This document shows, in pieces, positions 3,824-49,802 of a stretch of DNA of 64,000 nt (within the stretch, counting starts at the first letter, position 1; each line of letters begins with the position of its first letter). The translations under genes and the position numbers were made by a program. The notes beneath the pieces are model-generated. The model did no database searches and was not told where the DNA came from. It saw only the letters and a list, made by a program, of their open reading frames with translations. Origin of the DNA: Escherichia phage BAU.Micro_ELP-22; the sequence record OR699282.2, one strand, 5' to 3'.

Positions 3824-3855
3824 CCACATCAAAAAAATTGCATCTGAGGATACTT

Positions 3856-4518
3856 ATGTTAGTTAATCTTAATTTCATCACTTCACCTGACTGGGCATTA
3901 CGTGGAGTTTCTTTAAACTTCAAGGAAACTATGTTTGACTACATTGGTGAGTGTACATTGGTAAATGCAACTTTTGATCCAAATCATCCGTTTTGGGCTG
4001 AAATTCATGATCCAAATGTAAACAACAATACATCTGTTATGACTATTGTCCAGACTAAACATGCAGGTATCCTTGCAGGTTATCGACCTGCACATGCAAT
4101 TGAACACTTCACTGATTACGATGTCGTGGATGAATACCCAATGATCCATGAAGATGGAAGTCTATACACATCTGAAGACTTCCGTGCTATCTTTAATAGT
4201 ACTGATGATATTCTACCAAGTGGACGTCCACGTCCTGAGTCTTATCTTATGCATCCATCTTATGGTGTAGCAGATACGCTTGAACAGATTATGAATAAGT
4301 ACAAGAACCTAATTGAAGGTCCAGAAGAAATTGTCCTGTGCTATCACCCAGTACTGAAGTCTGAACAACCAAAGGATGGTGGATGGCGTTGGCATAAGAA
4401 TGGTGAGTATATCGGTACTAAACGAAGTAAAGAACGTTTTGAGTACTTGTATGATGAGCCAGATGTTGATGTGGTTTTGTGTTATAATTTTATTAAGGTG
4501 AAAAAGAAATGTATCTAG
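3856..4518 (+). CDS. hypothetical protein (220 aa)
   Basis: Start moved to internal ATG with SD GAGGA; ORF track 3838..4518. Confidence 0.6.
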   Translation: MLVNLNFITSPDWALRGVSLNFKETMFDYIGECTLVNATFDPNHPFWAEIHDPNVNNNTSVMTIVQTKHAGILAGYRPAHAIEHFTDYDVVDEYPMIHEDGSLYTSEDFRAIFNSTDDILPSGRPRPESYLMHPSYGVADTLEQIMNKYKNLIEGPEEIVLCYHPVLKSEQPKDGGWRWHKNGEYIGTKRSKERFEYLYDEPDVDVVLCYNFIKVKKKCI

Positions 4519-6565: not shown

Positions 6566-7006
6566 ATGTATGTATATCGTTTTGAACTTAAATTTAGTTA
6601 CATTGAACCTAACTTAGATCCTGCACGAACTGTAGGTCCGTTTGCACGGTATTCAACTAGATACAGTACTAAAAATGGATTTGACCGTTTGTGCATGACC
6701 ACACCTTCGCAATTCCAACCAGAACCAACTGAAGATGGAATCTATTCAATCAAACGTGGCTGGGTATTTGGCTGTCAAAGTTTGAAAGATTTGTTCAGAT
6801 TCTTCACTATGGACTTGGGTAAATTGCATCGTGCTGGGTTTGCTATATCTGTATATGAAGTTCCAGACCACCATGTAGACATTGGTCGTAATCAGGTTCA
6901 GTACTATTGCGGTAGTGCTAAATTAGTTCGTATCATGTCAGTTAAGGAAGCAAAGGATGAGTTCCGACAAAGTAAAAGAGAAACACATGAGGTAATATAT
7001 GGATAA
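6566..7006 (+). CDS. hypothetical protein
   Basis: ORF 146 aa; SD GAGGA. Confidence 0.65.
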   Translation: MYVYRFELKFSYIEPNLDPARTVGPFARYSTRYSTKNGFDRLCMTTPSQFQPEPTEDGIYSIKRGWVFGCQSLKDLFRFFTMDLGKLHRAGFAISVYEVPDHHVDIGRNQVQYYCGSAKLVRIMSVKEAKDEFRQSKRETHEVIYG

Positions 7007-42447: not shown

Positions 42448-43439
42448 TTAAACACATAGAGACAGGGGAAGCTCCTAGTGAACAACCTTTATGTACAGGC
42501 GAATTGTTAAAATTCAGCCTGGACAAATGCGATCACTAGGATTCTCCCCAGGCTAAACCCCGTAATCATAGGTAGTCATAAGTAATCATATATAAACATT
42601 TATATGAGCACCGTAGAATCACAGAATGATTATATATGATTCAGTACTGATTAGTATAGACAAGATTGCTCAAGAATGCACGGAAATGTGTGTGAATGAT
42701 TCAGTACTGATATCCCACTAAAGTAGGCAGAGGAAGTCTGCCGTACTTTGTAGTTTCCAAGCTCCTTTTCCATTTTTCAAATTACATCAAATGTAATCAA
42801 AAGTAATCACGCAATGATTAGTACTGAATTATTACTTTCACCTTAATTTCAATTACCCCTTTACCCTTCGGGGTAAAATTCCATTACCCCTTGAGGCTCC
42901 AGCAAAAAGTTGGTTAGTACTCCATCCTAAATCTCGATCCTAAAAATTTTGGAGTACCTATGAAATAAAAGTTGGATCTTCGAAAGTTGAAATTTACGTT
43001 GGGACGTTTATGATTTGTGGGATATAATGATGTTTGTAGTCGGGTAGTTCTCAAGAATATCAGTACTGAATGGTGAAAGAAAGTTATTGACATTATGATT
43101 CAGTACTGTATAATGTTCTACATAGAGAGATGAGTTGCTGCGAACAATTCATTTACTCTACCTCCTGTCGTGAGACAGTACAGAAAAGATAGTTCCTCCT
43201 GTGGTGGTACATCTTTTTGAACCTCATATGAAAATCGTAATAACAGTACTGATATTAACAGAATGGTGTCAGTACTGATTTTAATCTAAATCATTATGCC
43301 ACCAGCACAAGCTGGTGGATTCCCTCTAACAGTATTCAGTACTACATGATAGTCTTCATCCTCCTAGGGTAACATAGTGAGGGCTATGATGGCAGTACTG
43401 AATACTCCCTTTCAAAAGATAGATCTATGGTATAGTACT

Positions 43440-43630
43440 GACGGATTTTGGGTGTAGTTACCCTGGATGGATTTTGGGCGTAGATATGTCTAGCCCTCCA
43501 GAAGTCTGGAAGTAAAGATGGCTATCCATCTAGACGGCTAAACGGCTAGATTTCTGGATGGCTGGATGGCTAGACGTTTGGACGGCTAAACGGCTAGATG
43601 GTTACACGTCTGGAAGTATAGACGGCTAAA
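43440..43630. repeat. iteron-like short direct repeats (GACGGCTAAACGGCTAGAT, CTGGATGG, GTCTGGAAGTA)
   Basis: Multiple 8-19 bp units repeated within ~190 bp. Confidence 0.55.
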
Positions 43631-45557: not shown

Positions 45558-45824
45558 ATGAATATTAAGTATTTTGCGACGCGTGAACAAGCTCGGATCG
45601 CCGCACGCCAGGACGGGGCAACGTTTAAAGATATGGGCGTACAATCGGAACGTGGTAAACGTTGGGCCATTGTAAAGCGTAGTACCGCCAGATCATTACA
45701 GTACTGGTTAGCGGCCTTAAAAAGTCCCGATAGTGTATCGCGTCGAGTGGTAGAAATAAAGCTCGACCGAAAGGGCAACCGCGTGACCGTGTACCGTACT
45801 AAAAAGATTGCAGTACTTGAATAA
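45558..45824 (+). CDS. hypothetical protein, paralog of 58746..59141
   Basis: 88 aa; YFATREQARIAARQDG..KGNRVTVY shared. Confidence 0.65.
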   Translation: MNIKYFATREQARIAARQDGATFKDMGVQSERGKRWAIVKRSTARSLQYWLAALKSPDSVSRRVVEIKLDRKGNRVTVYRTKKIAVLE

Positions 45825-45911
45825 AAAGTACTTGCAAACTAAGTTTAAAAGCGTATAATGTTTTACATCGAGAGCGGGAACACTTCCCGCCTATAACCTG
45901 GAGTAATAAAA

Positions 45912-46142
45912 ATGACTAATATGTATATGACTGAAGTTAAAACCGTAAAAGATACTACCACAAATAAAGTTACTTACTTACAGCGGATCTGTGGTGTATG
46001 GCAACGTATCAGCAAATCAAAGTACTTTAAATTAACATCATATGCAAACCGTTCGGATTCATTCAGTACTGAAATAAAAGGTAATAAAGTACACCAATAT
46101 GGCACTTATTATTATTATAGCCTGGACGCGATTGCAGTATAA
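45912..46142 (+). CDS. hypothetical protein
   Basis: ORF 76 aa; promoter, hairpin, SD GGAG. Confidence 0.65.
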   Translation: MTNMYMTEVKTVKDTTTNKVTYLQRICGVWQRISKSKYFKLTSYANRSDSFSTEIKGNKVHQYGTYYYYSLDAIAV

Positions 46143-46424
46143 GCAGTTTACAAATCTTTACAATTGCCGGTATTGACTTATTTTGTCAGTACTGGCATAA
46201 TGTATTCATTGGCAGATAAGCCGTAGCCCATAGGGTGCGGGAGTGTATCTATAGAAAAATTAGTTTAGTATAGTTACAATTGTGCACCCGGTGGGTTAGC
46301 TGTTGTCATGTGGTATATTATGCCAGTACTTGATAATGCTGTCAATACTTTTTTTTACTATTCAGTACTGAAAACTATTTTTAAAAAGTACTTGCAAACT
46401 ATGTTTAAAGGCGTATAATGTTTT

Positions 46425-46505
46425 ACATCAGGACGGGGAACGAAATAAGTAACTTCCCGTTAAGTAGCCCAGGAGTAAGGCACACGAAAAACTCCCCTGA
46501 TAAAA
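46425..46505 (+). ncRNA. candidate structured leader / small RNA between tandem promoters
   Basis: CAGGACGGGGAACG..ACGAAAAACTCCCCTGA with paired ends; near-copy at 57554-57628. Confidence 0.3.
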
Positions 46506-46569
46506 TAGTTTGACAAATGTTTTTAAAAGCGTATAATACTTACATCAACTACTGAATGAGGGTTACAAA

Positions 46570-47258
46570 ATGAAAACTATCACTACTACTACTTTCGTTA
46601 TGGATTTTTCTGAATTGAACGCAGAACAAAAAACGTCAGCTATCGAACTGGTTCGGGAACGTGAAAAAAACTCAAACGACATTTTTCTGAATTGAACGCA
46701 GAACAAAAAACGTCAGCTATCGAACTGGTTCGGGAACGTGAAAAAAACTCAAACGACAATTATTTTTCTGAAAGTGAAATTGAATACTATAAAGAAACAG
46801 TACTACCGGAATATGGCATTAATGACGCTGAAATACAATTCAGTGGTTTTTGGTCCCAGGGTGACGGTGCATCAATCAGTACTGACCACGTTGACGCAGT
46901 GAAGTTTTTACGCAAGGTAAGAGCATTAACTAAGTATCGCTCAATCCGTCACTTGCTGAATGAAGATGATTTGGCGATGAGTGTAAAGCGTTCGCACTCC
47001 CACTACTCGCATGAGAATACTGTAAGCGGGTACATTGAATCGGCTTACACTGATTTAACCGCAAAACAAGAAACGTTAGTTAATGAGCTTGAGGAACTAC
47101 TCACTGAAACTATTCGTGAATTGTCCCGCAAGTTGTACCGTGATTTAGAGAATGCATATGAGGATCAATTCACTACTGAAAACATTACGGCACTGATTGA
47201 GGGTAACGAGTATCAATTCAATGTTATTGATGGCGTAGTGGAATCAATCGAATATTAA
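46570..47258 (+). pseudogene. gene disrupted by perfect 77-bp tandem duplication
   Basis: ATG 46570 frame stops at 46693-46695 inside copy 2; rest of ORF open in the frame restored by deleting one copy. Confidence 0.6.
46604..46757 (+). repeat. perfect 77-bp tandem duplication (2 copies)
   Basis: 46604-46680 identical to 46681-46757. Confidence 0.9.
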
Positions 47259-47340
47259 TTTAAAAAGTACTTGTTTAAAGGCGTATAATACTTTATATCG
47301 AGGCGGGGAGTGGTTCCCCGCTCAAACGAGGATTAAAAAA

Positions 47341-47580
47341 ATGGCTAGTACTAAAACTTACAACGGGCACAAAAACAAAACTCATTGGAATGTAAGCCTT
47401 TGGATTAATAACGGTGAGTCATTGTATCGGCTTGCTCAAAGTTGCATCGCACAAAGTAGAACTAAAGATATTGCAGCGGAATGTATGTACCGCAGATTAA
47501 AAGCCAACGGTACTACTACAACGCCGGACGGATTCAAATATAGCACTACTGCGATCCGTGCGGCGATGGTTGGAATGTAA
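47341..47580 (+). CDS. hypothetical protein, paralog of 45228..45467
   Basis: 79 aa; SD GAGGA. Confidence 0.7.
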   Translation: MASTKTYNGHKNKTHWNVSLWINNGESLYRLAQSCIAQSRTKDIAAECMYRRLKANGTTTTPDGFKYSTTAIRAAMVGM

Positions 47581-47637
47581 TATTCAGTACTGAGATAATG
47601 GCGGGTAATAGTTCCCGCCTTTACTGAGGGTTATCTA

Positions 47638-47925
47638 ATGAGTAAAGTAATAAAGTACAATGTGTTAAGCAAATCATTGTCTATCAGTGAATGCACCGAT
47701 GGTTTTTGGATGTACGATGAAACGCGTGGCATGAATTTAGCTATGCGTGCAAAAACTGCTGAGGCGGCGTATATTCAAGCACTGGAATACTACCAGGAAC
47801 GTTTAAAGGAAGTAGAAGAAGATTATAAAAGCCTCAAAGCGAAAGTAGATCATTTCGTCGGTCAATTCGTGGAAGACAACGACGAGGACGGGCACTACTG
47901 CGACCGTTGCGGATCTTACAGTTAA
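47638..47925 (+). CDS. hypothetical protein
   Basis: ORF 95 aa; C-terminal HYCDRCG. Confidence 0.6.
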   Translation: MSKVIKYNVLSKSLSISECTDGFWMYDETRGMNLAMRAKTAEAAYIQALEYYQERLKEVEEDYKSLKAKVDHFVGQFVEDNDEDGHYCDRCGSYS

Positions 47926-49338: not shown

Positions 49339-49569
49339 ATGACAGCACGAATAGTTTTACTTAACGAAAGCAGTACTACACAACTACTTAACGCCGTGCA
49401 TTATGATATTGAAACGAGCGTTAATCTTATCAGTACTGTCGTACTGTTGGACACTGGAAAGGTCGCCAATGATAAAGCGATTGCAGGTATACTAACGGAT
49501 CTTGAGCCTGGTAGCAGTGCACCAATAACGTTAAATGGTAAAGTGTTTAACATTTTACTTACTGATTAA
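49339..49569 (+). CDS. hypothetical protein
   Basis: Internal ATG (76 aa). Confidence 0.5.
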   Translation: MTARIVLLNESSTTQLLNAVHYDIETSVNLISTVVLLDTGKVANDKAIAGILTDLEPGSSAPITLNGKVFNILLTD

Positions 49570-49575
49570 GTACAT

Positions 49576-49598
49576 AGCCCACCTGGTGGGCTTTTTTG
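49576..49598 (+). terminator. intrinsic terminator
   Basis: AGCCCACC-TGGTGGGCT hairpin + T6. Confidence 0.7.
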
Positions 49599-49802
49599 TT
49601 TTTGTAGTATCGTAGTACTGAGATACTTTGAAAATAGTTTTAAAAAAGTAGTTGACATTACCGCAGAAAAGCGTAGAATGTATTACATCAAGACGGGGAG
49701 CACTAAGTAGACCGCCAGTAAGTCGAACGAAAAACTGGACACGTCGAGAAAACTTTGATACACTAATAAACGTAAACTAAACTTTAATTGAGGATTTATA
49801 AA

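Follow-up and report, generated by a model that had tools for sequence, protein, structure and literature searches.

A de Bruijn graph assembler that encounters a circular path writes it out as a linear contig, the last k bases of which are the same as the first k, and for reads of about 150 nt SPAdes by default goes up to a k of 77. With SPAdes run at k = 21, 33, 55 and 77, the contig of a circular genome had identical first and last 77 bp, and one of these ends was removed before the sequence was rotated (PMC8767329). Circular SPAdes scaffolds with 77-bp identical ends are also on record (PMC5671560), as is a further scaffold with 77-bp identical ends, which we cite for the length and not for the assembler (bioRxiv 10.1101/2022.04.05.487141). 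The k = 127 version of such overlaps has been described in phages as artefactual DTRs or artificial overlaps that are to be removed (PMC9331655, PMC5923482). Circular assembly is routine for phages with terminal repeats (PMC8785237), and SPAdes is commonly used for Asteriusvirus genomes.

We analyzed a 64,000-nt stretch of the Escherichia phage BAU.Micro_ELP-22 (OR699282.2), which we refer to as the window. It belongs to Asteriusvirus, i.e. the PBECO4/121Q-like jumbo coliphages of ~350 kb, and its best matches in the phage collection are 95.8-97.8% identical. Within it, a small gene carries a 77-bp unit twice over, head to tail. Like the SPAdes end overlaps of 55, 77, 99 or 127 bp (the 'artefactual DTRs'), this repeat is of k length (77) and perfect, and its repeated block corresponds to a graph vertex in a simulated assembly. 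In contrast to the published cases, in which the copies lie at the two ends of a contig and are trimmed, the copies here are adjacent inside the record; the extra step would be a rotation or re-orientation of the contig without trimming. We consider it likely, at a probability of roughly 0.8, that the second copy is an artefact of assembly and record editing and not a part of the phage genome.

A further point of comparison lies in the same gene of a relative, vB_Ec-M-J (OQ718158.1), in which positions 3854-3983 form a tandem duplication with a period of 63 bp (2.1 copies, 92% identity), corresponding to approximately 46553-46620 of the window. It spans the RBS, the ATG and the first 16 codons and is in frame (21 codons), yielding the annotated 224-aa product EcMJ_006. 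The second copy has lost its start codon (ATG to GCG) and the differences between the copies are mostly transition-like. The duplication is unique to that record among the 24 that were matched. We also observed that the 8% divergence between its copies is odd for a duplication in a single strain.

The repeated unit and the interrupted gene

Positions 46604-46680 and 46681-46757 constitute a perfect tandem repeat (77 bp, 2.0 copies, 100% matches, 0 indels; TRF score 310), with a boundary ambiguity of 1 nt, as A 46758 is the same base as A 46604 and A 46681. Nowhere else in the 64-kb window is a unit of 20-399 bp perfectly duplicated in tandem, and a perfect repeat of 77 nt cannot have arisen by chance. 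At the duplication junction CTCAAACGAC abuts ATTTTTCTGAATTG, and the junction 24-mer CTCAAACGACATTTTTCTGAATTG is absent from the single-copy sequence. The features of the locus are:

46510..46537, + strand: sigma-70 promoter of the broken gene (TTGACA, 16 nt, TATAAT; 12/12 matches to the consensus)
46558..46562, + strand: Shine-Dalgarno-like GAGGG, read from the sequence, 7 nt upstream of ATG 46570
46570..46695, + strand: 5' fragment of the broken gene, a 41-aa ORF with 37 native residues followed by IFLN and then a stop
46604..46614, + strand: upstream copy of the 11-nt direct repeat ATTTTTCTGAA; its first base is the first base of the duplicated unit
46604..46680, + strand: copy 1 of the 77-bp unit, identical to 46681-46757; the in-degree-2 vertex in the k = 77 de Bruijn simulation
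46681..46757, + strand: copy 2 of the 77-bp unit, apparently redundant; absent from the four aligned relatives and from all 17 fetched loci
46692..47258, + strand: 3' remainder of the broken gene in the +2 frame, 188 aa if read from TTG 46692; carries the invariant QGDGA motif of the family
46762..46772, + strand: downstream copy of ATTTTTCTGAA, 81 nt from the upstream copy in the single-copy sequence and 4 nt past the end of the duplication

The ORF beginning at ATG 46570 is terminated by TGA 46693-46695. Deletion of either 77-bp copy restores the gene, giving a 612-bp ORF that encodes 203 aa. A preliminary description of this DNA, made from its letters and ORFs, had reported the duplication and the resulting frameshift; its coordinates and frame statements were all correct, and its contention that removal of one copy would mend the gene is borne out by the restored 203-aa protein being 100% identical to the intact proteins of eight phage records. 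No Shine-Dalgarno-like sequence was found before TTG 46692.

The restored protein belongs to phrog_5162, a phage family of unknown function (E = 5.3e-81 over residues 4-198, with a full-length match to the profile), and it matched no Pfam or NCBIfam family above the cut-off. We recovered 396 homologues, nearly all of 190-215 aa, from jumbo phages of Escherichia, Erwinia and Yersinia and also from rV5-like phages. The invariant residues of the family are Q71, G72, D73, G74, A75, H122, Y164 and L167. Neither of the products of the broken ORFs, of 41 and 188 aa, is on record in public assemblies; the product of the upstream 76-aa neighbour is also not on record elsewhere.

The locus in related phages and public collections

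The conclusion of the preliminary description that the gene is broken is upheld by 189 of 191 records, which encode the family as one uninterrupted match. All four aligned relatives have one copy of the 77-bp unit and an intact 612-bp CDS, and one copy of the unit core is present at each of the 17 related loci that we fetched. A further 10 independent assemblies with an identical downstream neighbour all call the intact 203-aa gene. Many phages share this neighbour; all of them have the 203-aa gene intact, and their identity to the window does not exceed 96%.

The junction itself appears to be restricted to this record. A 70-nt query spanning it matched 31 phage records, none of which (0/31) matches contiguously across the junction; 29 of them cover most of the query, in two pieces that fall at opposite ends of a single unit. 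In exact scans, the junction was not found in the viral contig collection or in any phage contig of the genome and metagenome collections. The 40 matches to a junction 21-mer in the latter collections were dismissed, as they represent one Streptococcus parasanguinis locus, where the identity ends at 21 bases. A literature search for a real duplication reported in PBECO4-like phages gave nothing relevant.

Among the close relatives, the gene is one uninterrupted 203-aa ORF except in vB_Ec-M-J, with its in-frame duplication and 224 aa, and in CMSTMSU. We rejected the latter (MH494197.1, 601-1191) as an independent disruption of the gene: the record is marked 'UNVERIFIED', and over the 612 bp of the gene there are roughly twelve small indels, amounting to 25 gap positions, which we regard as sequencing errors. 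Such indels are typical of uncorrected long-read errors and are unfit as evidence of gene decay.

Unit length, the 11-nt repeat and the competing origins

The duplicated unit is exactly 77 bp, the top value of the SPAdes k list of 21, 33, 55 and 77. Its placement is also unusual: a relation to an 11-mer equivalent to that between the unit and ATTTTTCTGAA is seen in 0.041% of random 77-nt segments of the window, and the position of the unit is therefore non-random. The preliminary description had been silent on the significance of the number 77 and on the flanking 11-nt repeat. The 0.041% coincidence was at first read as the sign of a real event. Slippage between the two 11-mers was, however, rejected as the direct cause of the repeat, as it predicts an 81-bp in-frame unit with the junction CGACAATTATTTTTCTGAATTGAAC, whereas the observed junction lacks AATT and shares no more than 1 nt of microhomology.

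To model the assembly, the single-copy sequence and one molecule with the 11-mer-mediated junction were converted into a de Bruijn graph at k = 77; this is a simulated and not a real assembly graph. It contains just two branching vertices in 4 kb, of which the one with an in-degree of 2 is 46604-46680. When the cycle was opened at this vertex, printed with the overlap of k and naively rotated, the outcome matched the window at 64000/64000 bases. Both the length of 77 and the boundary at the 11-mer are thus explained, because the path through the junction merges back into the main one at a k = 77 vertex that is identical to the unit. By the same token, a seam close to a short direct repeat is no proof of slippage, since graph vertices form exactly at the starts of repeats. 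We discarded the idea that a contig interrupted at the two loop vertices was simply joined up again, since, as reasoned from the vertex coordinates, such a join would give a 62-bp and not a 77-bp duplication.

We propose the following course of events. Short reads would have been obtained from a phage with a direct terminal repeat of ~21 kb, and a de Bruijn assembler would have been run on them at k = 77, both the assembler and the k being what we infer from the repeat. The terminal repeat would have collapsed, so that the genome assembled as a circle, which the assembler would have printed as a linear contig with the last k bases repeating the first k. The circle is likely to have been opened at the 77-mer 46604-46680, as a branching vertex of the graph, at which a presumed minority of reads with the ATTTTTCTGAA 11-mer junction would rejoin the main path. 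These reads could derive from rare but real 81-bp slippage variants or from library chimeras. Their existence is made more plausible by vB_Ec-M-J having another tandem duplication in the same 5' region, and duplications may well arise at the 5' region of the broken gene given that 63-bp case. Finally, the contig would have been rotated or re-oriented untrimmed, for example for collinearity with a reference, bringing the two 77-mers head to tail in the sixth gene of the terminal-repeat region. On this model, the length, identity, boundary, scant microhomology and uniqueness of the repeat and the intact restored protein are all expected, and the actual phage genome most likely contains the unit once, with the 203-aa gene unbroken. 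The preliminary description had offered a recent event, an unstable duplication and an assembly artefact without ranking them; the k-mer length and the k = 77 branching vertex favour the last of these.

The strongest competitor, to which we assign a rather low probability, is that a genuine 77-bp tandem duplication arose very recently in the phage stock through an illegitimate recombination or template-switching event that needed hardly any microhomology, inactivating a dispensable early gene, and that the repeat is unstable and reverts by recombination between its copies. The repeat is, after all, present in the sequence as given; a real and very recent duplication would be just as perfect and as unique to this genome as a seam, and microhomology of at most 1 nt is compatible with illegitimate recombination. 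The terminal repeat contains many small early genes like this one, which is plausibly non-essential in the laboratory, and in vB_Ec-M-J the same 5' region has also been duplicated, into copies that now differ. In both phages the copies are head to tail within the 5' part of this gene, where short direct repeats containing CTGAA occur. The vB_Ec-M-J duplication is in frame, has 6 nt of microhomology (CTGAAT) and copies diverged to 92%, whereas the event in the window is out of frame and perfect, and bypasses the available 11-nt repeat. By analogy, vB_Ec-M-J would exemplify the expected look of a genuine slippage duplication at this locus, the hallmarks of which are wanting in the window. While its perfect identity fits a recent origin and, along with its uniqueness, is expected of a real duplication, the length of 77 and the relation to the 11-mer then become coincidences. 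The unit is a standard assembler k and nothing biological favours 77, a length that we estimate to be found in less than 1% of real duplications; it starts at the 11-mer yet uses at most 1 nt of homology, a pattern that is predicted by the vertex model and not by slippage. The failure to find the junction in any relative or in any of the public collections searched, and a restored protein without an amino-acid change relative to eight other phages, also weigh against a genuine duplication.

A more specific and still less probable proposal is that the repeat is real and heritable and disables, in an unstable and reversible manner, an early gene with a strong promoter in the terminal repeat; the gene would be turned off by duplication and on by recombination between the copies. 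Were this true, the stock would be a mixed population at a slippage-prone site that has independently been duplicated in vB_Ec-M-J. In a weaker version, a minority 81-bp in-frame variant in the stock might have caused the branch in the graph.

We regard it as highly improbable that the arrangement is functional, be it through termination-reinitiation at TTGA, a 77-nt ribosomal hop or a reversible on/off switch. The stop TGA 46693-46695 does overlap the potential start TTG 46692-46694 as TTGA, and, arithmetically, a hop of exactly one unit between identical codons would recreate the native protein. Programmed recoding sites are conserved features, whereas this one is unique to one record: it is conserved in none of the more than 30 close relatives or the 396 family members, and the TTG is not preceded by a Shine-Dalgarno-like sequence. 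With the bypassing of the type known from T4 gene 60 it shares a coding gap, a native frame that resumes after it and a stop soon after the interruption; it differs in being unconserved in relatives and in that the interruption is a duplicate of coding sequence.

Most likely, then, the phage itself lacks the 77-bp duplication; the biological import is small, the matter being mainly one of data quality. The record probably holds 77 spurious bases that split an intact and widely conserved 203-aa early gene in two, and users of the genome should treat the gene as intact unless reads contradict this. A rule of recognition also emerges: when a phage or plasmid record contains an internal, perfect tandem duplication with a unit of 55, 77, 99 or 127 bp, one should suspect an untrimmed overlap.

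The terminal-repeat region

Base 1 of the records of both vB_Ec-M-J and fEgEco12 maps to position 42722 of the window, and the former is annotated with a 21.5-kb direct terminal repeat from that base. Consequently, 42722-64000 of the window can be identified as the terminal-repeat region, which is dense in tiny early genes, and the broken gene as the sixth small early gene inside it. The window is continuous across 42722, the physical left terminus in the terminus-resolved relatives; as it reads through this position, the record was probably not opened at the physical end, as expected of one derived from a circle. This continuity fits a circular assembly with a collapsed repeat, and equally fits a window that spans the start of the right-hand copy of the repeat. 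In comparison with two relatives, no other annotated conserved ORF in the 21-kb region is frame-disrupted. The record is thus otherwise clean, which fits one seam as opposed to sequence of low quality.

The region has other repetitive elements. About 800 bp inside the terminus-equivalent position, at 43529-43628, lies an imperfect tandem array with periods of 24, 32 and 48 bp, units like GGCTAGATGGCTACACGGCTGGAAGG and 72-78% matches, which might be related to packaging or terminus recognition. Nearly every small gene in 45800-47700 has its own sigma-70-like promoter, built on the repeated motif TTTAAAGGCGTATAAT or TTTTAAAAGCGTATAAT (e.g. 46392-46419, 46510-46537 and 47260-47289), and the repetition of these motifs accounts for many of the extra places per record in BLAST. 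A 58-aa ORF of vB_Ec-M-J (6584-6760, unannotated there) aligns to 49535-49707 of the window in two frames; this probably reflects a non-coding spacer as opposed to another frameshift. The 79-aa downstream neighbour of the broken gene, at 47341-47580, carries the DUF7249 domain (PF23907), and in relatives a paralogue of it lies ~2 kb upstream (e.g. L048 1959-2198), indicating that paralogy among small genes occurs in the terminal repeat.
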